64,000 bases of DNA from an uncultured Gemmatimonadaceae bacterium (GTDB lineage: Bacteria; Gemmatimonadota; Gemmatimonadetes; Gemmatimonadales; Gemmatimonadaceae), in NCBI GenBank assembly GCA_963790305.1, contig CAWBOC010000005.1, positions 448,001-512,000 of the forward strand. Direction: 5' to 3'. The notes below the pieces were generated by a model, which saw nothing but the letters and a program-made list of their open reading frames with translations, ran no database searches and had not been told where the DNA came from. Positions 5,078-17,309 of the stretch are shown here, piece by piece. The position numbers and the translations under genes are program-made. How positions within the stretch are numbered: position 1 is the first letter of the stretch; the number at the start of each line of letters is the position of its first letter.

Positions 5078-5752
5078 ATGTATCGCTCGTCGCTCGTGCT
5101 CGTAGTCACCGTGGTCGCGCTCGCCGGATGCGCTACCATGGGACGGCAGGTCGAAACGGACTCCGGTGACCTGGCGACGGACCTCGAACAGGCGCGACAA
5201 GACACCGTTCGGGCGCGGGCGGCGTACGACACGGTGATCGGACAGCGCCGAGCGGTCAATGCGCGCACCGTCGCGTTCGAGGACAGCCTCAGGCGTGCGC
5301 GTGAGGCGGCACTGGCCGCCGCGGCAGCGGCACGTGATTCCGCGCAGCGAGTGGCCGCCGCCACCGTCACCACGCCCGAGCCCGGCGGTGGTGAGCGAGC
5401 GCTGTCGGACGCCGAGGTCCGCGTCATGTCACAGCAGCTCTACTTCTCGACGAACAGCGCGCACCTCACGAACGCGGCGCGCGCGCTGTTACGCGAGAAG
5501 GCGGCCATCCTGGCTCGCAACCCTGCCCTCACCCTTACCCTCACCGGCCACGCCGACGCTCGGGGCGCAGCCGACTACAACCAGCGACTGAGCGAGCGAC
5601 GAGCGGCGGCGGTGCAGCGCTTCCTCGTCGAGCTCGGGATCGAGGCCCAGCGTCTCACCAGCGAAGGTCGAGGCGAAGAGGCACCGGCGATCGAAGGATC
5701 TGGCGAGCGGGTATGGCAGCGTAATCGGCGGGTCGAGTTCATGATCTCCTGA
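5078..5752 (+). CDS. OmpA/Pal-like peptidoglycan-binding lipoprotein with coiled coil
   Basis: Lipobox LAGC; 'GHADARG..YNQRLSERRA...RNRRVE'. Confidence 0.9.
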   Translation: MYRSSLVLVVTVVALAGCATMGRQVETDSGDLATDLEQARQDTVRARAAYDTVIGQRRAVNARTVAFEDSLRRAREAALAAAAAARDSAQRVAAATVTTPEPGGGERALSDAEVRVMSQQLYFSTNSAHLTNAARALLREKAAILARNPALTLTLTGHADARGAADYNQRLSERRAAAVQRFLVELGIEAQRLTSEGRGEEAPAIEGSGERVWQRNRRVEFMIS

Positions 5753-6046
5753 CCGACGTCACCCCTGTCATGACGGGCGTGGTCGCTTGCGACCGCGCCC
5801 GTTTTGCATCCGGGCATTGGAGATGATCCGGGCCGCACGCATCCGCTGACGTCTTTCTGACGGATTTCGACATCGTGCCGGGGTCGCGCACAGAGTCTCG
5901 TGGCGCAGCTGGCACGGGACTTCAAAGCGGTGACTGGACAGAACCGCACGAGGCGCGGCTCACGACGGTGGAGCGATGGAGCCGCCGCGTGACCCCAATG
6001 GCGCGCGTCGCCATCACACTCCATTGAACCATACATGGAGGTTCAC

Positions 6047-6238
6047 ATGCAACCGATCACATCGCTCGGCGTTGCCGAGCTGACGCAGGATGAGCTGGTG
6101 GCGGTCGCGGGCGGAAGTGACGCGTGTTGGTGCAGCGGCCTCGCGAGCAAGCTGGGCTACGCAATCGGCTACGCACTCGGCGAGCTGGTCGACGCGCTGG
6201 TGAGCCCAGAGGATAACAACTCCTTCCTGGGCAAGTAG
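6047..6238 (+). CDS. Double-glycine leader precursor peptide 1 (bacteriocin-like)
   Basis: GGAGG RBS; leader ends 'ELTQDELVAVAGG'; 40-aa core SDACWC...FLGK with GxxxG repeats. Confidence 0.85.
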   Translation: MQPITSLGVAELTQDELVAVAGGSDACWCSGLASKLGYAIGYALGELVDALVSPEDNNSFLGK

Positions 6239-6289
6239 CCGGATCGAGGATGCACCATCACAAACTTCCCACCTGCGAGGAACACCACC

Positions 6290-6490
6290 ATGCTCGATAC
6301 CCACATGCTTGCCGTCGACGGCGAGCACATCACCCTGCTCGATGAGCAGACACTGGCCTCCATCGTTGGAGGCGATGGCATCAGGGATTGGCTGGCCAAG
6401 AAAGTCGGAGAGCTGCTCTTCGACTGCCTGGCCGGAAGTCTCGACACGATCATTTCCGCCGCTGAAGAAGGGTATGGCGACGCGCGCTGA
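6290..6490 (+). CDS. Double-glycine leader precursor peptide 2 (bacteriocin-like)
   Basis: GAGGA RBS; leader ends 'LDEQTLASIVGG'; 38-aa core DGIRDW...GYGDAR. Confidence 0.85.
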   Translation: MLDTHMLAVDGEHITLLDEQTLASIVGGDGIRDWLAKKVGELLFDCLAGSLDTIISAAEEGYGDAR

Positions 6491-6571
6491 AGCCCGCGCG
6501 CACCGTGTCCGGCGCGCCAGGCGCGCGCCGGACCGGGTGCGTACCCCCGTGGCGGCAGGCGAGCGCTCTGA

Positions 6572-7441
6572 ATGGCACGGCGGCTTCGGAGAGGAGGGCG
6601 AGTCCGGTCGCTCCTGAGTGCCGTGTTCTCCATTGCGTGGACCTATGCGTGGATGGTTCCTGTCGTCGCCGCGCTCAAGATGGATGCGGTTGAGGCGATC
6701 GCGGTCCTGGTGGGCACAGTCGCTCTCTTCGTTGGCCTCTGCGTCATTCGCCCACTGAGAGCAAACCCGCGGGCCGCGGCGCTTCTCCGCTTGCGCTCCT
6801 GTCGTGTCTACCTCCCGGCGTTGACGCTTGCGACCGCCATGAAGCTGCTTCTCATGCTTTCCACGCTTGCCCTACACGAGCAACTCGCCGCGCGTCGCCT
6901 GTTGCCGAAAATGCCGGATGACGGGGACGTCATTACGGCCGAGCTCCTGGCGCAGCCGTTAGGTCAGGTCGCGCTATTCCTCGGAATCGTGGTGATGGCT
7001 CCATTGATCGAGGAGTTTGGCTTCCGCGGTCGTGTGCAGCACACCCTCGAGCACGCATTCGGCGTGGTTCCGGCCATCGCGGCGAGCGCTGTGCTGTTCA
7101 GCGCGCTTCATGGAAGGATCAATGCGGCGCACCATCTTGCCTTCGGCGTCTTCGCTGGATGGGTGGTGTGGCGAACCGGGTCCATCTGGTCGGCCGTGTA
7201 CATGCACGCGCTCAACAACGCCGCCGCCCAGCTCCTGCTGCACCTCACGACCATCTCGGCTGCTGACTGGAGCGACAAAACCGCCGGGCTCGGGCCGTAC
7301 GCGATCGTCGCCGCGCTCGTCGGCCTCAGCGGGCTGGTCGCCGCGGGCGCCCGCATCCACCGCACAGCTCGAGCAGAAGGGCGCGGCGGCCACAACGGGA
7401 GAACCCGGTCGGCGCGAATGGCGGTTTCGCCGGTGGCGTGA
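6572..7441 (+). CDS. CPBP/Abi (CAAX-type) intramembrane protease, putative immunity protein
   Basis: 'EEFGFRG', 'FSALH', 'HALNN' motifs; multiple TM helices. Confidence 0.9.
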   Translation: MARRLRRGGRVRSLLSAVFSIAWTYAWMVPVVAALKMDAVEAIAVLVGTVALFVGLCVIRPLRANPRAAALLRLRSCRVYLPALTLATAMKLLLMLSTLALHEQLAARRLLPKMPDDGDVITAELLAQPLGQVALFLGIVVMAPLIEEFGFRGRVQHTLEHAFGVVPAIAASAVLFSALHGRINAAHHLAFGVFAGWVVWRTGSIWSAVYMHALNNAAAQLLLHLTTISAADWSDKTAGLGPYAIVAALVGLSGLVAAGARIHRTARAEGRGGHNGRTRSARMAVSPVA

Positions 7442-7444
7442 GCC

Positions 7445-8635
7445 GTGAGCCGTGAGGCAATGGTTCCCGCTCCGCTCGTCGAGGATTGCGTCGAGGTTCA
7501 CCTCGCGCGACATGCCCCGACTGGTCGCGCGCTGTACCTGACGATCCTGGCGACGACAACCGCCGCGGCCATGGCCATGCCCATCGTACAGGTGCCGGTG
7601 ACGGTGCAGGCCAACGGCGTGATCCGTCCGGTCATTGAGCGCCAGGATGCCCGGGTCGCAGAAAGCGGCATCGTTCACATCGTATACGCGCGCGACGGCG
7701 ACAGGGTTCGGGCCGGCGACACCCTGATCGCGCTCAATGCCCGCACCGTCAGGATTCGCCTCGCCGCGTCCGATGCAATCGCGCACGCGCGGGAAACCGA
7801 GCTCGCTGATCTCGAGCAGCTCCTCAATGCGGGAGATTCACTCGTCTCGTGGCAGAGCCTCGCGACGCCGCACCGCCGACAGCAGTCTCGTGAGCATGCG
7901 GCGATCATGACGGAGCTCGAGGCTCGAGCGAGGGCGGAGGGCCGGGAAGCCGACCGCTTGCGTACACTCCTGGTCGGGGGCTTCGTCGCGCCCGAGCAGC
8001 TCGAGAGACAGGATGCGGCTCGCCGCACCGCACAGGCAGCGGTGCGCGAGCACGTCGAGCGGATGCGGTCGAACTGGTCTGACGCACGCGCCCGAATCGC
8101 CAATGATCTCCGCCGCCTCGACAGCGAGCGCGCCAATGCGGGAGAAGCGCTCGCGCGGCGTGTCGTAATCGCCCCGGTCGATGGAACGCTCGAAATGGCT
8201 GCCTCTCTCTCGCCAGGGAGCGTGCTGCAGCAGGGCGAGCGCGTCGCCACCATCTCGCCGAACACCGATCTGGTTGGCGAAGCGCTACTGACGGCGCGCG
8301 ACATTGCGCTCGTGCGACGCGGGACTCCAGTGCGCCTCATGATCGACGCACTCAACTACCGTGACTGGGGCGTGGTGGACGCGACGGTGATCGATGTCGC
8401 CGACGACGCGTCTCTGAGCGCCGAGCAGCCTGTGTTTCGGGTGCGCTGCCAGCTTTCGCGCCATGACTTGCGCCTTCGCGACGGACACCGCGTCGCCCTG
8501 GGCAAGGGACTCACATTTCGCGCGCGATTCGTCATCGCCGAGCGCTCATTGTTACAGCTGCTGTTCGATGATGTCGATGACTGGCTGAATCCAGCGCGGG
8601 GCCGGCCGGTCCCGGCGGCAACCGTTAGGCTGTGA
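7445..8635 (+). CDS. HlyD-family membrane fusion protein
   Basis: N-terminal TM, 'GIV..V..RDGDRVRAGDTL', coiled coil, 'IAPVDG', 'DALNYRDWG'. Confidence 0.9.
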   Translation: MSREAMVPAPLVEDCVEVHLARHAPTGRALYLTILATTTAAAMAMPIVQVPVTVQANGVIRPVIERQDARVAESGIVHIVYARDGDRVRAGDTLIALNARTVRIRLAASDAIAHARETELADLEQLLNAGDSLVSWQSLATPHRRQQSREHAAIMTELEARARAEGREADRLRTLLVGGFVAPEQLERQDAARRTAQAAVREHVERMRSNWSDARARIANDLRRLDSERANAGEALARRVVIAPVDGTLEMAASLSPGSVLQQGERVATISPNTDLVGEALLTARDIALVRRGTPVRLMIDALNYRDWGVVDATVIDVADDASLSAEQPVFRVRCQLSRHDLRLRDGHRVALGKGLTFRARFVIAERSLLQLLFDDVDDWLNPARGRPVPAATVRL

Positions 8636-10800
8636 GGCTGCGCCGATCGGTTCCGCCGGTGCGCCAGCGCGACAGCTCTGACTGCGGCGCCGCCTGTCTC
8701 GTGAGCATTGCCGGATGGTATCGGCTGCGTCTCCCGATCGCGCGCGTACGACAGCTCACACATACCGACCGGCGTGGGACCACGGCGCTCGGCCTCGTGG
8801 AAGCCGCGACGAGACTGGGGTTCCAGGCCAAGGGCGTACGCGCGACACGAGAGGCGCTCGGGGCACTTCCGCTCCCGGCGATCGCCCACGTGACCCGCGG
8901 TCACCTGCAGCATTGGGTGGTCCTCTCGCGTCTCGAGGCGAGGCATATGGAGATCATGGACCCGGCCTCGGGAGCACGCGAGCGCGTCAGTCGGGAGTCC
9001 TTCGAGCGTGAATGGTCGGGAGCGATGGTGCTGCTCGCGCCTGCGAGTCGATTCGCTGCCGGGGACCAGCGAACCTCGATCGTTCGCCGCTTTATCGCTC
9101 TCATCGCGCCGCATCGAGCCATCCTCACCATGGCCCTCGTGGGCGCAGTGATCCACACCGCGCTCGGGCTGACGACGACCGTCTACGTGCAGCAGTTGGT
9201 GGATCACGTTCTCGTCGACGGCAATCGAAACCTGCTCAACCTGATGAGCGTCGCCGTGCTGACCCTGATTGCCGCGCAGACGCTCGTGGGCGGCATGAAG
9301 GGTCTCCTTGTTCTCCATATCGGCCAGCGGATCGACGCGACGCTCATCCTTGGATATTACAGACACCTGTTGAGCCTGCCGCAGCGTTTTTTCGACACAA
9401 TGCGGATTGGAGAGATCACCTCTCGCGTCGGCGATGCGGTCAGGATTCGCGCGCTCATCAACGACATTGCCGTCGAGCTCATCGTCAGCACGCTGGTGAT
9501 CGCGCTGTCACTCGTCCTGCTATTCCTGTACAGCGCGACGCTCGGTCTGCTGGTTCTGGGAACCTTTCCGATCTACGTTGCCATTTGGGCGCTGGCGAAC
9601 ACGCGGAACCGACACGCGTCGCGCGCGCTCATGGAGCGGAGCGCGGAGCTCCAGTCACAGATCGTGGAGTCGGTCTCCATGATCGGAACGATCAAGCGCT
9701 TTGGGCTGGAGACGGACATGGAGCTGCGCACGGAGGTTCGCTTCGTCCGACTTCTCCGGGCCGTGTTCCGGTCGGCGGGAACCGCTCTCATGACAAGCAC
9801 AGCGACCGGCGCGGTGTCACGGCTGGCAGTCGTCGCCGTGCTCTGGACAGGGTCAGTCCTCGTGATCGAGCGCCGGCTAACACCCGGCGAGCTCATGTCT
9901 TCCTATGCGCTGCTCGGATACCTGACCGGTCCACTACTGACGTTGATCACCGCAAACCGAAGCATTCAGAATGCGCTCATCGCCGCGGATCGCCTGTTCG
10001 AGATCCTTGACCTGGAACAGGATCGCGTCACCGCGCATGCAACGATGGATGTGACCATCGGTGGCGACATCGACTTCGAGCACGTGAGCTTCCGCTACGG
10101 GGCGCGCGCACCGGCGCTCCGAAATGTGACACTACGATTTCGTCGTGGTGCCATCACGGCGGTCGTCGGCGACAGTGGTTCCGGGAAGAGCACGATCGCC
10201 GCACTCGCGCAGCGCGTGTATGTGGCGGACGACGGCCGCGTTCGCATCGGGGGCATCGACGTTCGACACCTGAGCAGCGAATCGATACGCGCGCTGGTCT
10301 GTACGGTGCCACAGCGCATCGATCTCCTCGCGGGGTCGATTGTCGAGAACATTGCCCTTGGTGATTCAGAGCCCGACATGAGACGCGTCCTCGAGGCAGC
10401 GCGGGCCGCAGGAATCGTCGACATGATCGATCGCCTTCCGGCGGGAGTCGACACCGAGCTGGGCGAAAATGGCGCCACGCTGTCAGGGGGCGAGCGTCAG
10501 CGCCTCGCGATCGCGCGCGCTCTGTACCGGGATTCGGAGATTCTCATTCTCGACGAGGCGACATCATCGCTCGATGGCCCGTCGGTGCAGCGGGTTCGTC
10601 AGCTCACCGAGGAGCGTCGCGCTCGCGGGCGGACGGTGATCGTGATCGCGCACAGCCCCGATCTCGTGATCGGCGCGGATCACATCGTCGTCATGCGAGA
10701 CGGGATCGTCGTCGAGGAGGGGACGCACGCCGACCTCATCAGCCGGCGTGGCGCCTATCATGCGTTATGGGAAGGCCGAAGCCTTGGGCGTGTGGCGTAA
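8632..10800 (+). CDS. Peptidase C39-containing ABC transporter (PCAT)
   Basis: 'QRDSSDCGAAC', 'HWVVL', 'IMDP' catalytic residues; Walker A GDSGSGKST, LSGGERQ, ILILDE, H-loop. Confidence 0.95.
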   Translation: MRLRRSVPPVRQRDSSDCGAACLVSIAGWYRLRLPIARVRQLTHTDRRGTTALGLVEAATRLGFQAKGVRATREALGALPLPAIAHVTRGHLQHWVVLSRLEARHMEIMDPASGARERVSRESFEREWSGAMVLLAPASRFAAGDQRTSIVRRFIALIAPHRAILTMALVGAVIHTALGLTTTVYVQQLVDHVLVDGNRNLLNLMSVAVLTLIAAQTLVGGMKGLLVLHIGQRIDATLILGYYRHLLSLPQRFFDTMRIGEITSRVGDAVRIRALINDIAVELIVSTLVIALSLVLLFLYSATLGLLVLGTFPIYVAIWALANTRNRHASRALMERSAELQSQIVESVSMIGTIKRFGLETDMELRTEVRFVRLLRAVFRSAGTALMTSTATGAVSRLAVVAVLWTGSVLVIERRLTPGELMSSYALLGYLTGPLLTLITANRSIQNALIAADRLFEILDLEQDRVTAHATMDVTIGGDIDFEHVSFRYGARAPALRNVTLRFRRGAITAVVGDSGSGKSTIAALAQRVYVADDGRVRIGGIDVRHLSSESIRALVCTVPQRIDLLAGSIVENIALGDSEPDMRRVLEAARAAGIVDMIDRLPAGVDTELGENGATLSGGERQRLAIARALYRDSEILILDEATSSLDGPSVQRVRQLTEERRARGRTVIVIAHSPDLVIGADHIVVMRDGIVVEEGTHADLISRRGAYHALWEGRSLGRVA

Positions 10801-10808
10801 CACCCGCG

Positions 10809-12296
10809 TCAGGGCGTTACCAACCTCAATTCGTTCCCGCGTGTGCTGTCCCACTTCTCGGTGAGCGACGCACGGGCGGCGTCGATTTGCGATCGAACGG
10901 CTCCCGGCCCCGTCCCCCCTTCCGCCTCCCGTCGCTCGACCGATCGCAGCGCCGACAGGGCGTCGAACACATCGCGCTCGAACTCCGAATGCGCCGACGC
11001 GAAGGACTCGAAGGGGAGCGTGTTCAGCTCGCAACGCTTCTCTTCTGCTTCGCGCACCAGCTTCCCGACCGCGGCATGCGCCTCGCGGAACGAGGCGCCC
11101 TTCTCCACGAGATAGTCCGCGAGATCGGTTGCCATCATCGAGCTCCCCAGCGCCGACTTCATTCGCTCCGGGCGAAACGCCAGCTCGGCGAGTGTTCCGG
11201 TGACTGCCGGAAGCACCAGCAGCATGGTGTCGACCGCATCGAACAAGGCTCGCTTGTCGTCCTGCAAATCCTTGTTGTAGCCGGTGGGCAGGCCTTTGAT
11301 GGTGCCGAGAAGGGCGACCAGATCCCCCAGCAGTCGCGCACCCGAGCCGCGCGCGATCTCCAGCGCATCCGGATTGCGCTTCTGCGGCATCATGCTCGAT
11401 CCGGTGGTGAACGAGTCGCCGAACTGCACGAACCCGAACTCGCTGGACCCGAACAGGATGAGATCTTCGGCCAGGCGCGACAGGTGGGTGGCGAGCATCG
11501 TCGTCGCGAACAGAAGCTCCGCAACGAAGTCACGATCGCTCACCGCATCGATGCTGTTCCGCGACAGGCCGGCGAACCCGAGGCTTCCCTGAAGCAGCAC
11601 GCGGGAAATCGGGAATGCGCAGCCCGCGATGGCGCCAGAGCCTAACGGCAGGACGCCAGCGGCGCGCGATGCGCCCTCGATTCGGGCGCGGTCGCGATCG
11701 AGCGGCCAAAAGTGCGAGAGCATCCAATGGGAAGCGAGCACTGGCTGTGCGCGCTGCAAGTGCGTGTACGACGGCATGAGCGTCGCACCCAGCTCGACCG
11801 CCCGGTCGAGCATCGTACGCTGCAGGGCACGCACGGCCGCGTCCAGCGTCGTACACGCCTCCATCGCCCACAGGCGCGTGGCGGTCGCCACCTGATCGTT
11901 GCGCGACCGCCCGGTATGAAGCTTGGACGCGATGTCCCCGATCTCTTCGTGCAGAAGGCGATCGATGAGCGTGTGCACGTCCTCGTCGGACGCGATCGGA
12001 GACTCGCCGGCGCCGAGGCGTTCGGCGACAGCGTCGAGTCCGTGCTCGATGGCCGTACTCTCTTCCAGGGTGAGGACGCCTGCATGCCAGAGCGCCACCG
12101 CCCAGGCCTTGGAAAGCTTCACGTCGAACGGCCAGAGACGGAGATCGGTCCCGATCGACCGGTTCAGAGCATCGAGCTCCGGTGCCGGGCCGGTCGCGAA
12201 GCGGCCACCCCACAACCGATGTGTGCCGCGGGCGGTGCGCTGCGCGGCTGTGTCGTCCGCGCCGGTATCGGGCTCGACTACGAGGTTGGGAATCAT
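10809..12296 (-). CDS. argH: Argininosuccinate lyase
   Basis: 'LWGGRF', 'HTGRSRNDQ', 'YTHLQRAQP', 'GSSMMPQKRNPD'. Confidence 0.97.
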   Translation of the reverse strand: MIPNLVVEPDTGADDTAAQRTARGTHRLWGGRFATGPAPELDALNRSIGTDLRLWPFDVKLSKAWAVALWHAGVLTLEESTAIEHGLDAVAERLGAGESPIASDEDVHTLIDRLLHEEIGDIASKLHTGRSRNDQVATATRLWAMEACTTLDAAVRALQRTMLDRAVELGATLMPSYTHLQRAQPVLASHWMLSHFWPLDRDRARIEGASRAAGVLPLGSGAIAGCAFPISRVLLQGSLGFAGLSRNSIDAVSDRDFVAELLFATTMLATHLSRLAEDLILFGSSEFGFVQFGDSFTTGSSMMPQKRNPDALEIARGSGARLLGDLVALLGTIKGLPTGYNKDLQDDKRALFDAVDTMLLVLPAVTGTLAELAFRPERMKSALGSSMMATDLADYLVEKGASFREAHAAVGKLVREAEEKRCELNTLPFESFASAHSEFERDVFDALSALRSVERREAEGGTGPGAVRSQIDAARASLTEKWDSTRGNELRLVTP

Positions 12297-12303
12297 CTCA
12301 GCC

Positions 12304-13566
12304 TCACGCGATCGCGAGAGAGGGTTCAGGCTCCGCTTCCTGCTTCTCCGTGGACTCCTCGACTGCGTCGCGAGCTTCGGCGTCCTTGAGCGCGCGGACA
12401 CGCGCGGGAAGGGCGAACAGGCGAATGAAGCCGCCCGCGTCTGCCTGTTCGTACACGTCGTCCTCGCCGAACGTCACGAAGCGCTCGTCATAGAGCGCGT
12501 GGTCACTCGCGCGACCAGCGATGATCACATTGCCCTTGTAGAGGCGCAGTGTGACGGTCCCGGTCACGCGTTCCTGCGTCACCGATACGAACGCATCATA
12601 GGCTTCGCGCTCGGTGGTCCACCACCGCCCCTCATAGACGAGGTCGGCGTATCGTGGCGCGATGAGATCCTTGGCGGCAAGCGTTCGGCGATCGAGGACC
12701 AGCTGCTCGAGCTCCGAATGCGCCGCGTAGAGGAGCGTCCCGCCAGGCGTCTCGTAAATACCGCGAGACTTCATGCCGACCAGTCGATCCTCCACGAGGT
12801 CAATGCGTCCAACGCCATGACGGCCGCCGATCGTGTTGAGCGTTGACACCAGCGTCACGGGATCCAGGCGCTCGCCATTCACCGCGACCGGGGTTCCGCG
12901 CTCGAACTCTATCGTTACGTCCTCGTGCTCATCAGGCGCCTCGGCCGGCGAGGTACTGAGCATGAACAGATCGTCGGGCGGAACGGCCGAAGGATCCTCG
13001 AGCATCCCGCCCTCGTGCGAGATGTGCCACAGGTTACTGTCACGCGAGTAGATCTTCTGCGCGGTGGCCGCGACCGGGATGTTGCGCTTCGCGGCATACG
13101 CGAGCGCATCCTCGCGGCTCCGAATATCCCAGACGCGCCATGGCGCGATGACCGGAAGCTCGGGGGCGAACGTCGCGTAGGTGAGCTCGAAGCGCACCTG
13201 GTCATTCCCCTTGCCGGTGCATCCATGTGCGAGCGCATCTGCCCCGATGGCCTTGGCAACCTCGCACTGGCGGCGCGCGATCAACGGGCGCGCGATGGAC
13301 GTGCCGAGGAGGTATTTCCGTCCGTAGATGGCCCCGGCGCGAAGCATGGGCCACAGGAAGTCCTCGACGAACTCCTGTCGAAGATCCTCCACGTAGCACT
13401 CGTCGGCGCCGGAGGCGAGCGCCTTGGCGCGGACGCCTTCGAGCTCGTTCCCCTGGCCGATGTCGGCCGCGACGCAAACGACCCGGGCCTCGTAATGCTC
13501 CTTGAGCCAGGGAACGATGATCGACGTGTCGAGTCCGCCGGAGTAGGCGAGGACGATAGTGCGCAT
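12304..13566 (-). CDS. argG: Argininosuccinate synthase
   Basis: '[10 protein letters not shown]', '[14 protein letters not shown]', '[12 protein letters not shown]'. Confidence 0.97.
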
Positions 13567-13579
13567 TGGCAGCCCCAAT

Positions 13580-13632
13580 TGAGAGAATATGCAGTGCGGA
13601 TGCATAATCTCTCGTTTACGCCCGATTGTCAA
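13580..13632 (-). promoter_or_regulatory. argGH promoter with tandem ARG boxes
   Basis: Minus-strand TTGACA(13632-13627)-N17-GATTAT; two 14-bp box cores (13580-13593, 13601-13614) 7 nt apart. Confidence 0.75.
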
Positions 13633-13676
13633 GTGAAAGGGTCACCTTCCGCGAGGCCCCTGGCGGAGGCAGTCGG

Positions 13677-14138
13677 CTACCGCCCCGCCAACGTTCGGAT
13701 TCGCCGAACCAGGCGCTCGCGGGCGGCTGTCGAGCGGCAGATCAGCAGGATGGTGTCGTCACCGGCGAGCGTGCCGAGGATGTCCGGCCACGCCTCGGCG
13801 TCGATGGCGCGTGCGATCGGCTGAGCGCCGCCCGGGACGGTGCGGATCACGACCATCTCGCCGACGCCGTCGACGGTGTTGAACAGCGGTGGAAGGACCG
13901 CCTCGAGGACCGGGTTTCCATCACTGGCGGAGGCGCCGCCCGCGGCCAGGGTGTAGCGCGCGCCCTCGGGCGTCGATACCCTCGCAACCCCGAGCTCCCG
14001 CAGGTCTCGAGAGAGCGTTGCCTGCGTCACATCCCATCCGCGCTGCCGGAGCATCTTGCGGAGCTCCTCCTGACTGCCGACCTCACGTGCCTCGATGAGC
14101 TCGCGGATGGTCGCCTGGCGCACGCGCTTGTTGGCCAT
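13677..14138 (-). CDS. argR: Arginine repressor
   Basis: 'SQEEL', 'VTQATLSRDLREL', 'GTLAGDDT'. Confidence 0.95.
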   Translation of the reverse strand: MANKRVRQATIRELIEAREVGSQEELRKMLRQRGWDVTQATLSRDLRELGVARVSTPEGARYTLAAGGASASDGNPVLEAVLPPLFNTVDGVGEMVVIRTVPGGAQPIARAIDAEAWPDILGTLAGDDTILLICRSTAARERLVRRIRTLAGR

Positions 14139-14222
14139 GCCGATAAAGTGGTGGCTCCGTGGCGGTGGGTCGAGGGTCACCGGCGACATCGCGCATCTTT
14201 TTCAGGAAGCGTCCCGAAGGTC

Positions 14223-14272
14223 TTGACCACGCCGTCTTGCATGTATATTCATTCCCTGTGCATAAACTTCCC
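14223..14272 (+). promoter_or_regulatory. argCBD promoter with tandem ARG boxes
   Basis: TTGACC...TATATT; TGCATGTATATTCA (14238-14251) and TGCATAAACTTCCC (14259-14272), 7 nt apart. Confidence 0.75.
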
Positions 14273-15337
14273 GTTGGGGTGCTCGGCGCGTCTGGCTATG
14301 CCGGCCGTGAGCTGTGCGCCCTCATCGCGCAACACCCCGCGCTCGACCTCCATTTCGCGACCGCCAACGAGCGAAAGGGAGAACGTGCGCGCCTGGGTGG
14401 CCAGGAGGTGCGATTCGTCGCGCACGATGATGCGCATCTGGAAAAGTGCGCTCTGGTTTTCAGCGCGTTGCCGCACGGTGCGTCGGCTCCCTGGGTTCGA
14501 CGCGCCCGAGAGGCGGGAGCCAAGGTGGTCGATCTCTCTGCCGATCTGAGACCCGGGTCGACCACGAAGGAAGGCGCACGGGGAGTCACGAATGTGGTGG
14601 CTGCATCCGCGCACGGGGCAGCTGCGGAGGGACGTGCTCCGGGCGTTGCGACAGCCGCGCATCCGCAGGTATTGGCGGGGGCATCGTCGACCGTTCCGTA
14701 CGGTCTCACCGAGCTCAATAGGGCCGCCATCACCACGGCCGACCTCGTCGCCAATCCGGGGTGTTATCCCACGGCGATCCTGATCGCCCTCGCCCCGCTT
14801 GCCGAACGACAGCTCATCGCTCCGGGCGCCACGGTGACTGCGAGTGCCGCCAGCGGAGTCACCGGGGCGGGCTTCACTCCGCGCGCCGATCTTCTTTTCG
14901 GTGAGGTGACGGAAGACTTCCGTCCGTACGCGGCGGGGAACGAGCATCGTCACCTCCCCGAGATGACGGCAACGCTCGCGCGATGGGGCGCGGATTGCGA
15001 TCTGATCTTTGCGCCGCATCTGCTTCCAGTGGCACGCGGCATTCTTGCCACATTGTCGATCCCGCTCACCGCGCCCTTGCCCACGCCGAACTCGCTGTGG
15101 CGTGAGCGATTTGCCGGGGAACCGTTCATCGAGATCGCCGATGAGCTTCCTGCCTTGCGAGATGTGGTGCGGCGCAACGTCGTTCGCATCTGCGCGACCA
15201 CCACCGCAAACGTCCGCACACCAACGCTCGTGGTTTACGCGGCGATCGATAATCTGGTGAAAGGCGCGGCTGGCCAGGCGCTGCAGAACGCGAACCTCAT
15301 GCTCGGCCTTCCCGAGCAGCAAGGACTGCCCTCGTGA
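14258..15337 (+). CDS. argC: N-acetyl-gamma-glutamyl-phosphate reductase
   Basis: 'GVLGASGYAG', 'ALPHG', 'VANPGCY', 'SGVTGAG', 'IDNLVKGAAGQA'. Confidence 0.93.
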   Translation: MHKLPVGVLGASGYAGRELCALIAQHPALDLHFATANERKGERARLGGQEVRFVAHDDAHLEKCALVFSALPHGASAPWVRRAREAGAKVVDLSADLRPGSTTKEGARGVTNVVAASAHGAAAEGRAPGVATAAHPQVLAGASSTVPYGLTELNRAAITTADLVANPGCYPTAILIALAPLAERQLIAPGATVTASAASGVTGAGFTPRADLLFGEVTEDFRPYAAGNEHRHLPEMTATLARWGADCDLIFAPHLLPVARGILATLSIPLTAPLPTPNSLWRERFAGEPFIEIADELPALRDVVRRNVVRICATTTANVRTPTLVVYAAIDNLVKGAAGQALQNANLMLGLPEQQGLPS

Positions 15338-16119
15338 TCCGCCTGGTGAAGATCGGTGGGCGCGCGCAGCAGTCGGCCTCGCTCATCCCTGCCCTCGCCT
15401 CGGCGTGGCGCGCCACTCCTGGCGCGCTCGTCGTCGTGCACGGCGGCGGCGACGAAGTGACGGCACTCCAGCGCACGCTGGGACGCGATCCTCAGTTCGT
15501 CGATGGACGCCGGGTAACGACCGATGACGACATCGCGATCCTCCGCATGACCCTGTCCGGGGTCGTCAACAAGCGGCTCGTGGCCGCGCTTGTCGCGGAC
15601 GGAATTCCGGCAGTCGGCATCTCAGGCGAGGATGCGGCGGTATTGTCGGCTGAGCCTATCAATGCGGCGACCATGGGTCGCGCGGGAGAGCCCGCGCATG
15701 CGAACGTGCACCTCGTGCGGCATCTCCTCCAGGGCGGGTTCCTGCCGGTGATCTCACCTCTCGCCCGAGACGCACGCTCGGATTCCGGCGACGCGCTCAA
15801 CGTCAACGGGGACGATGCGGCGGCTGCCATCGCAGGAGCGCTGGGGGTTGGGGAGCTGCTCTTCATCGCCGACGTGCCCGGAGTCCTCGAGGGCGGCAAC
15901 GTCATTCCTACGCTCGATTCCGAGCGCAGGCGCGCACTCATCGCCGCTGGCACCGTCACTGCCGGGATGATTGCGAAGCTCGAGGCCTCGCATCGTGCAC
16001 TCGCGGCTGGAGTGCCCCAGGTGCGCATTGGCGATCTCGACGCGATCGCGGACGCTGGCCGGGGAACTCGAATCGTGACCGCGTCCGTGCCGCAGACCTT
16101 CACTTCGGTACTCGCATGA
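15334..16119 (+). CDS. argB: Acetylglutamate kinase
   Basis: 'VKIGG', 'VHGGG', 'GRRVT', 'NVNGD', 'DVPGV', 'GMIAKL'. Confidence 0.92.
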   Translation: MIRLVKIGGRAQQSASLIPALASAWRATPGALVVVHGGGDEVTALQRTLGRDPQFVDGRRVTTDDDIAILRMTLSGVVNKRLVAALVADGIPAVGISGEDAAVLSAEPINAATMGRAGEPAHANVHLVRHLLQGGFLPVISPLARDARSDSGDALNVNGDDAAAAIAGALGVGELLFIADVPGVLEGGNVIPTLDSERRRALIAAGTVTAGMIAKLEASHRALAAGVPQVRIGDLDAIADAGRGTRIVTASVPQTFTSVLA

Positions 16120-17309
16120 CCGCTACCGTTCAACTCGCGGCCCCGCCGCACGAGGAAGCCTTGCTCCCCGTCTATCGCCGAGTCCCGCTCGAGATTGTGC
16201 GCGGCGAAGGGGTATACGTCTATGACCCCGATGGGCGTGCCTATCTTGATTTCGTCAGCGGCATCGCCGTCAACGCACTCGGGTATGGCGACGACGGCAT
16301 TCGCGCCGCCATCGAAAGCGCCCTCTCGTCAGGCGTGCTGCACGCGTCGAACCTGTATCACACGGCGCCGGCGCGCGCGCTGGCCACGGCTCTCGCGGAG
16401 CGGTCCTTCGCCGCGAAAGTCTTTTTCTGCAACTCGGGGGCGGAAGCCAACGAGGGTGCGTTCAAGTTCGCGCGGCGCTGGGCGCTCAGCCACGGCGGCC
16501 CAGGGAAGCACGAGATCCTCGCCCTTCGGGGCAGCTTTCACGGCCGCCTCTTCGCATTGCTTGCGGCGACGGATCGACCGTCGTACCGCGCACCGTTCCG
16601 TCCGCTCGCTGGCGGCGTCGGGATCGTCGAGCGGGATGTGAGCGCTCTCGACATCGCGCTCAATTCCGAGACGGTGGCCGCGCTGATCGTCGAGCCGGTG
16701 CAAGGCGAGGGTGGTGTGCGCGTGCTGGACGGCGATTTCATGCGCGCGGTGCGTGAGATGACGCAGACGCGCGGGATCGCGCTCATTCTCGATGAAGTGC
16801 AGTGCGGGCTCGGCCGGACCGGCCACCTGTTCGCCTACGAGCGGTACGGTGTCGAGCCGGATCTCCTTACGCTCGCGAAACCATTGGCTGGAGGACTGCC
16901 GATGGGCGCGGTGCTGCTCAACGAGCAAATCGCGTCAGCCGTTCGGCCCGGTGATCACGCGACGACCTTCGGCGGCGGACCACTGGTCGCGAGCGTCGCG
17001 CTGCACGTGCTCGAGCGCGTGAGCAACGCCGCTTTCCTCGCTGGTGTGCGCGAGCGCGGTCTGTGGCTCGGGCAGCAGCTCCGTGCACTTGCCACCCGCA
17101 CCAGCCGGGTGCGCGCGGTGCGGGGAGTCGGATACATGTGGGGTGTCGATGTGACCGTGCCTGCATCCGAGCTCGTCACCGCGGCGCTCGAGGAGGGTCT
17201 GCTGGTGTGCACGGCAGGCGAGCATACCGTGCGCCTATTGCCGCCGTTGATCGCCACGCGGGACGAATTGGCCCACGGGCTGGGGGTGCTCGAGCGGATT
17301 CTCTCCTAG
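16116..17309 (+). CDS. argD: Acetylornithine aminotransferase
   Basis: 'FCNSGAEANE', 'SFHGR', 'DEVQCGLGRTG', 'AKPLAGGLP', 'TTFGG'. Confidence 0.92.
   Translation: MTATVQLAAPPHEEALLPVYRRVPLEIVRGEGVYVYDPDGRAYLDFVSGIAVNALGYGDDGIRAAIESALSSGVLHASNLYHTAPARALATALAERSFAAKVFFCNSGAEANEGAFKFARRWALSHGGPGKHEILALRGSFHGRLFALLAATDRPSYRAPFRPLAGGVGIVERDVSALDIALNSETVAALIVEPVQGEGGVRVLDGDFMRAVREMTQTRGIALILDEVQCGLGRTGHLFAYERYGVEPDLLTLAKPLAGGLPMGAVLLNEQIASAVRPGDHATTFGGGPLVASVALHVLERVSNAAFLAGVRERGLWLGQQLRALATRTSRVRAVRGVGYMWGVDVTVPASELVTAALEEGLLVCTAGEHTVRLLPPLIATRDELAHGLGVLERILS

Follow-up and report, generated by a model that had tools for sequence, protein, structure and literature searches.

We describe a five-gene export cassette on a 64,000-nucleotide (nt) stretch of DNA from an uncultured Gemmatimonadaceae bacterium (assembly GCA_963790305.1, contig CAWBOC010000005.1, positions 448,001 to 512,000 of the forward strand), which we call the window and whose coordinates we use throughout. 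The cassette encodes two small peptides, A and B, each with a double-glycine (GG) leader, followed by a predicted immunity protein, a membrane fusion protein (MFP) and a peptidase-containing ATP-binding cassette (ABC) exporter (PCAT). What is new here, and absent from an earlier sequence-only reading of the window, is that the cassette is fixed throughout a genus, that its promoter carries a repeat common to other genera, and that peptide A is preceded by a structured leader RNA of about 165 nt with covarying stems. The genes are as follows:

6047-6238, plus strand: pepA, 63 amino acids (aa), with a GGAGG ribosome-binding site (RBS) at 6037-6041, a 23-aa GG leader and a 40-aa core
6290-6490, plus strand: pepB, 66 aa, with a 28-aa GG leader and a 38-aa core
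6572-7441, plus strand: CPBP/Abi intramembrane protease (PF02517, E 7e-19), the predicted immunity protein
7445-8635, plus strand: HlyD-type MFP (HlyD_3, E 7e-14)
8632-10800, plus strand: PCAT (C39, E 2e-33, with ABC membrane and ATPase domains)

Both peptide genes stand up to comparison. We find 81 homologs of peptide A (57-100% identity; a wider alignment adds few distant ones) and 116 of peptide B (36-92% identity), and the GG is kept in every one of them (81/81 and 116/116), bearing out the sequence-only reading, which had placed two small tandem open reading frames (ORFs) with GG leaders here. That reading had also described CPBP, HlyD and C39-ABC proteins with intact catalytic residues; in addition to the family matches given above, the Q-x-D-x-x-D-C-G, His and Asp motifs of the C39 domain and the EExxxR, FxxxH and HxxxN motifs of the CPBP protein are present in 9/9 copies from the genus. 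Another ATG, at 6035, is in frame with pepA and has no RBS of its own. The PCAT is the sole C39 match in this genome, and genome searches with leader and core profiles find no further GG precursors for this single exporter. As had been noted before, neither TolC nor a modifying enzyme is encoded between the OmpA-lipoprotein gene on the 5' side and the convergent argH on the 3' side; TolC-family genes or domains occur at seven other loci of the genome, and VKOR at one.

The cassette occupies the same chromosomal site in 9/9 genomes of one Gemmatimonadaceae genus, and each of them (9/9) encodes a close ortholog of the MFP. A synteny check, which the earlier reading had proposed, gives the order OmpA lipoprotein, A, B, CPBP, MFP, PCAT and convergent argH across the eight congeners (the G001 locus is spread over two contigs, and the G003 contig ends before ompA); seven metagenome contigs agree with this order as far as each reaches, and A adjoins B in all 14 loci that show both. 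The gene trees have the same main groupings, with distances that correlate with those of argH at 0.71-0.90 in an informal comparison of nine related genomes, and the cassette genes are apparently inherited vertically. Pooled dN/dS relative to this genome is 0.18 for the A core, 0.24 for the B core, 0.31 for CPBP and 0.16 for the PCAT, with argH at 0.08. We conclude that pepA and pepB are real, constrained genes. CPBP is the fastest-evolving gene of the cassette, and the most divergent genes are pepB (down to 42% identity) and CPBP (down to 47%), a pattern that would fit the tendency of toxin-immunity pairs.

Among 401 genomes of the family, the A profile matches 11, namely the nine of the genus together with G122 and G116, and the PCAT subfamily is found in 16 (a count that includes G164). 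G122, which belongs to another genus, has an A-like peptide, a B-like peptide that keeps its cysteine and a CPBP gene, with the exporter on another contig, while in G061, also of another genus, all five genes stand in the same order. In G116, three GG peptides precede the MFP and PCAT, with no CPBP gene in view; G385 has one GG peptide, which is A-like, and the stretch seen ahead of its MFP shows neither a B-like nor a CPBP gene. The G116 locus (L061:593-1613) resolves into two A-like peptides with two cysteines each, one B-like peptide and a 62-aa ORF lacking a GG, which may be a small immunity protein. Six matches outside Gemmatimonadaceae have E-values of 1e-4 to 5e-4 and mostly span 20-25 residues; against 1.84 billion representatives the A profile returns four matches, three of them family members and one a repeat artefact. 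The nearest plasmid-borne PCATs come from Bacteroidota and rhizobia (47-49% identity). We opened four of these plasmid regions: one, from Phocaeicola, holds a full cassette, two rhizobial regions hold GG peptides, and in the fourth we found no GG peptide. Considered together, the layouts of G122, G061, Phocaeicola and the rhizobia indicate that this is a recurring diderm cassette.

The Phocaeicola case, on plasmid pBACSA02 of P. salanitronis (NC_015168.1), repeats the order of two GG peptides, CAAX protease, HlyD and PCAT (49% identical); it differs in having its own TolC, unrelated and shorter cores, a mobilizable plasmid as carrier and no match to our leader RNA model. Its genes (L083:1432-7638) are annotated as hypothetical; the strain is cultured, and it offers an easier model for the layout. 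On the rhizobial plasmids (L084:2517-3214; L085:995-3162), unannotated or hypothetical GG peptides with a common leader type lie before HlyD/PCAT genes, among transposases.

How does this layout compare with characterised systems? Microcin S (mcsS-mcsI-mcsA-mcsB), a class IIa microcin, has the same order of precursor, CAAX protease, HlyD and peptidase ABC, has cysteines, and likewise lacks a modifying enzyme, and its CAAX gene has been shown to confer immunity (PMC3316575); it has one precursor where we find two, and it is plasmid-borne rather than chromosomal and fixed in a genus. Plantaricin JK (PlnJ/PlnK, with the Abi immunity protein PlnL), a class IIb two-peptide bacteriocin, likewise combines two adjacent GG precursors, short helical cores and a CPBP/Abi gene, whereas our cassette has a diderm host, predicted MFP/TolC export, anionic cores and invariant cysteines. 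Abi-family immunity is described for plantaricins EF and JK and sakacin 23K, with Abi proteins put forward as a proposal for PlnJK (PMC8538875), and the receptor reported for PlnJK is an APC transporter (PMC4985602, PMC5607208). As in class IIb bacteriocins, an adjacent precursor pair shares an operon with an immunity gene in 14/14 loci, if the CPBP protein has that role, and the leaders of 23 and 28 aa, within the 15-30 residues of that class, come with a dedicated C39-ABC exporter. The set of precursor, immunity protein, MFP and PCAT, with no modification other than disulfides (judging by gene content), is also that of class IIa microcins, which have a single mature peptide of roughly 5-10 kDa where we find two; relative to the 5-10 kDa given for class II microcins in PMC10233263, the cores here are about 4.1 kDa each.

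The earlier description of an unmodified class IIb- or microcin-like export cassette agrees with the gene content of the cassette, which includes no precursor-modifying gene. We lean, with a confidence a little above even, toward a class II bacteriocin-like pair of unmodified peptides, with immunity through proteolysis: because a fixed site and a known two-peptide antibacterial layout coincide in nine genomes, a competition toxin pair with self-protection is the likely function.

The cores themselves allow other readings to be weighed. Recomputed core sequences and net charges are the same as those reported before: the A core (net -3, 4136 Da) has CWC, a glycine-zipper helix (GYxxG) and a polar tail, and the B core (net -4, 4070 Da) is amphipathic and helical, with one cysteine and a GYxDA end. 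GYxxG is invariant in A. For charge and motif counts we use 80 A and 115 B cores, having dropped one frameshift-like row from each set; lengths are 37-41 aa and glycine content 12-13%. In class IIb bacteriocins both peptides carry GxxxG or a motif like it. Every A core has GxxxG (80/80), and 54/80 have GxxxGxxxG, a pattern found in 0/115 B cores; small-xxx-small occurs in 115/115 B cores, though it is easily met by chance. Two motifs that A and B were said to share do not generalise: LA.K(L/V)G is limited to 18/81 homologs of A and 4/116 of B, and GEL to 17/81 of A and 41/116 of B. Nor is it supported that A and B are paralogs, as their profiles align at only 4% probability. Single-chain AlphaFold models of A and B are helices of low confidence (mean pLDDT 53 and 57), and look-alikes in the ESM Atlas are unnamed or driven by the leader only (0.86-0.91).

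A zipper of this kind raises the possibility that the peptides aggregate or form amyloid fibres that stay on the surface of the producer, serving in matrix or adhesion and perhaps killing only by contact, as is the case for CdzC/D of Caulobacter and MccAB1 of Acinetobacter. CdzABCDI of Caulobacter crescentus likewise has two small glycine-rich proteins, a diderm host, type I export and a TolC encoded elsewhere, and peptide A shows the four features by which Cdz-like proteins are recognised in PMC5380434 (60-151 aa, a GG leader, a charge-flanked uninterrupted zipper and a polar tail). Microcins can also act as biofilm scaffold apart from killing (PMC13188072), and a structural role would explain the genus-wide fixation. 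We nevertheless consider this reading unlikely. The zipper is short and confined to A, and an uninterrupted one is present in 54/80 A and no B cores where the Cdz toxin proteins have it; the cores, at 12-13% glycine, are about half the length of CdzC/D (precursors of 86 and 84 aa) and contain cysteines; a CPBP gene replaces CdzI, while Cdz immunity is described as a small membrane protein, with a nearby CAAX gene dispensable (PMC5380434); and the models, despite their low confidence, show helices.

The cysteines are the other striking feature of the cores, with CWC in 81/81 A homologs and the B cysteine in 115/116. They could be a functional group in their own right, binding a soft metal such as copper or receiving a modification from an enzyme encoded elsewhere, in which case that ion or metabolite might also be what the leader RNA described below senses. 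A CxC pair lends itself poorly to an internal disulfide, a radical SAM (rSAM)-target model gives the A leaders weak scores in 7/9 members, and the genome contains two SPASM-domain genes. These lie more than 150 kb from the cassette or on another contig, however, a genome search finds neither YcaO nor MNIO, and the cysteine number varies in other genera (the A peptide of G122 has one, the B peptides of G116 and G061 none); we take such chemistry to be very unlikely.

Net charge is negative in 79/80 A and 115/115 B cores. The class IIb peptides of Gram-positive bacteria are mostly cationic, and the charge contrast holds only against these. The sequence-only reading had called anionic cores unusual, a view that does not survive wider comparison: most microcins are described as neutral or anionic and receptor-using (PMC10233263), the first core of the Phocaeicola plasmid cassette has a net charge of -4, and predicted class II bacteriocins are reported to have lower net charge than antimicrobial peptides in 34 of 56 phyla (PMC12648112, whose main text makes no mention of Gemmatimonadota). 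Anionic cores would fit receptor-mediated rather than charge-driven action.

Upstream of the peptides, two elements define a predicted promoter:

5847-5862, plus strand: direct repeat TGACG-N6-TGACG with an 11-bp period, predicted site of a SARP/OmpR-type activator
5871-5876, plus strand: -10-like hexamer, 8 nt past the repeat, with a predicted transcription start near 5883

The repeat is present in 14/14 genus loci and in 4/5 peptide loci of other genera, against 21/20000 random 480-nt stretches; in the other genera we searched within 480 nt of a reference point, which for G032 is an ATG upstream of the likely start by some 120 nt. NANNNT follows the repeat at 8-9 nt in 13/14 genus loci, and hexamer positions A2, T3 and T6 are invariant in the alignment. 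OmpR-family proteins bind DNA in like manner to SARP activators. Known SARP/OmpR-type promoters likewise have an 11-bp repeat that ends 8 nt before a -10-like hexamer, a geometry given as typical of SARP activators in PMC4393881. The genome holds 12 BTAD matches and 33 matches to the repeat, 12 of these outside crude gene calls, and across the nine genomes the repeat pattern outnumbers its reversed control by 144 to 43.

The pair may instead be a secreted signal of cell density or kin recognition, which the CPBP protein would process or clear and whose response would feed back on the repeat. The conserved activator-type repeat and the BTAD regulators encoded in the genome speak for this, as do the fixed position, the purifying selection and the invariant C-terminal motif of A, and double-glycine pheromones are known in Gram-positive bacteria. 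Set against these points, neither the cassette nor its immediate surroundings encode a sensor kinase or a regulator; pheromones are usually single and shorter than these cores, which are long amphipathic helices; and competition is the better fit for a mobilizable plasmid that carries this layout with unrelated cores. We regard a signal as distinctly unlikely.

Between the predicted transcription start and pepA lies the structured leader:

5883-6046, plus strand: 5' leader of about 165 nt, comprising P0, P1, P2, then an anti-Shine-Dalgarno (anti-SD) strand and the RBS
5883-5889 with 5953-5959, plus strand: P0, 1/7 pairs changed on both sides (13 of 14 loci)
5960-5992, plus strand: P1, 6/13 pairs changed on both sides
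5975-5981, plus strand: near-invariant loop of P1 with 7-nt complementarity to 6019-6025, a predicted pseudoknot that would free the RBS
5997-6015, plus strand: P2, 3/7 pairs changed on both sides
6019-6025, plus strand: invariant anti-SD strand, with the P1 loop or the RBS (6037-6041) as predicted partner

In a set of 13 distinct but related leader sequences, the covariation score is reached by 0/500 shuffles, a control that related sequences can pass, and folding z-scores are -1.0 to -4.7. The 7-nt complementarity between the P1 loop and the anti-SD strand is present in all 13 sequences; 6/7 of its pairs never vary and the only change is from G-U to A-U, with no compensatory pair, so the pseudoknot is a prediction for which invariant pairs fall short of proof. 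The anti-SD strand can alternatively pair with the RBS over four invariant bases. Nested folding, in which pseudoknots do not form, predicts the RBS to be paired at 0.64-1.00, and when each is taken as an isolated duplex, the anti-SD strand is predicted to bind the loop (-7.3 to -7.7 kcal/mol) no less strongly than the RBS (-5.2 to -7.0). The leader has the predicted anatomy of a translational on-switch, which makes it a candidate for one; a protein or the ribosome could be the reader of the P1 loop.

Pseudoknot translational riboswitches likewise use alternative pairing of an anti-SD strand, and the structural features by which riboswitches as a class are recognised, namely a covarying conserved structure, a gene downstream and an expression platform, are found here; no Rfam covariance model matches, the best E being 0.87 in this region of the window and 0.71 in two orthologous loci. 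Elsewhere in this genome our leader model gives one weak match, and across 150 family genomes it gives two; all three fall within coding sequence. Under strict filters the motif occurs in this genus only among 151 genomes. Two other forms of control were rejected. For CsrA/RsmA acting at ANGGA-like sites, PF02599 is found in 0/9 genomes (71-100% complete; a control is positive in 3/14), and for leader-peptide attenuation, the short ORF that in this genome ends at the anti-SD strand changes frame among the 14 loci. A bolder idea, which we hold to be rather unlikely, is that the leader is an undescribed riboswitch-type RNA in which a ligand or condition locks the pseudoknot, frees the RBS and turns on a disulfide-linked heterodimer kept across this soil genus as a core trait, for kin discrimination or matrix, rather than as a transient weapon. 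If a ligand is indeed sensed, the leader would represent a new class of riboswitch with a link to antagonism; even without one, it clearly qualifies as a candidate for gating a peptide toxin operon at the level of translation.

Returning to the two-peptide toxin pair, we can sketch how it might work under such two-tier control. A SARP/OmpR-type activator bound at the repeat would switch the operon on, and the leader would gate translation of A, off with the anti-SD strand on the RBS and on with that strand on the P1 loop. The PCAT would cut both leaders after the GG, and the 40- and 38-residue cores would be exported through a TolC encoded elsewhere. The A and B helices would then pair, possibly linked by a disulfide, with a membrane protein of related soil bacteria as their receptor, while the CPBP protease would shield the producer, as McsI does for microcin S.

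Several observations weigh against this toxin pair. The main difficulty is that fixation in 9/9 genomes, trees broadly like that of argH and purifying selection point to a core function more than to a weapon; in contrast, microcin matches are reported in 8.2% of A. baumannii strains (PMC13188072) and Cdz-like toxins are described as varying strongly among strains (PMC5380434). It is this core-gene behaviour that keeps the surface-aggregate, signal and cysteine-chemistry readings alive. The layouts of G385 and G116 indicate that neither pairing nor immunity is obligate across the family, and only 23/115 B cores have GxxxG. In the family search that the sequence-only reading had proposed, the precursors fall below every bacteriocin family cut-off tested (PF10439 at 18.3 and 13.2 bits against 27.1; TIGR03949 at 12.6 against 21.5; none above the curated cut-offs of the lactococcin G alpha and beta models). 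Compared with the PDB, the A profile comes closest to PlnK of plantaricin JK, through a GYAIGYA helix common to both; this speaks for the pair, but at E 0.04, and at E 0.48 for a single A core, so weak a likeness is a lead only; B has no bacteriocin match in the PDB. Finally, the 11-bp spacing of the repeat is not raised genome-wide over neighbouring spacings, for which reason we do not claim a large regulon.

As to novelty, the claim of an undescribed pair from a poorly studied diderm lineage stands insofar as no precursor passes a named family's cut-off, and we found no published account of such peptides in Gemmatimonadota in the open-licence literature; the layout, on the other hand, is known from microcin S, plantaricins EF and JK and sakacin 23K. 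The cassette is a new family of a known kind; its charge is less odd than the earlier reading supposed, and its fixation and leader RNA are of greater interest. It bridges Gram-positive class IIb systems (a PlnK-like helix, Abi immunity) and microcin-type export, and its fixation raises the question of why some 'microcins' act as core genes. Since the cores are short enough to synthesise and have some 80-115 natural variants each, the family allows direct tests, in a diderm, of two-peptide action, of cysteine linkage and of immunity by a protease.

Two hairpins accompany the cassette:

5773-5805, plus strand: hairpin with a short T run, -34.9 kcal/mol, 3' of the OmpA-lipoprotein gene, stem kept in nine genomes
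6500-6542, plus strand: strong hairpin in the gap from pepB to the CPBP gene, with the arms of its inner stem conserved across nine genomes

The first is likely a terminator that bounds the cassette unit upstream, although our terminator scan, which requires five T, did not flag it. The second likely stabilises the peptide mRNA or limits read-through.

The repeat also turns up at other places in this genome and family. In one place 64 nt separate it from a downstream winged-helix/BTAD/AAA (SARP-like) regulator gene (L100:1288-4534, near 150.8 kb of contig C3), which is seemingly broken into several frames, and in another it precedes two tandem lipoprotein-like genes of 332 and 293 aa with no Pfam match above cut-off (L101:3342-5414, near 358.9 kb of contig C6), candidates for secreted proteins co-regulated with the cassette. 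Three TGACG copies lie upstream of the exporter locus of G032 (L031:7659-8476), where a related exporter accompanies unrelated, very hydrophobic GG peptides with a small membrane ORF between them.

As for the neighbours, all genus loci that extend far enough encode, directly 5' of the cassette, an OmpA/Pal-like lipoprotein with a coiled N-terminal part (5078-5752). On the other side, the argH stop is 8 nt from that of the PCAT, and 10809-17309 reads, from its translations, as an arginine biosynthesis cluster whose genes we take to be argH, argG and argR on the minus strand and argC, argB and argD on the plus strand. At the left edge, 5-1403 encodes a lasso peptide B2 protein (NF033537, above cut-off) and then an NTP_transf_5 nucleotidyltransferase, likely the end of a lasso cluster that extends left of the window; the nucleotidyltransferase has the same place in three congeners and one metagenome contig.

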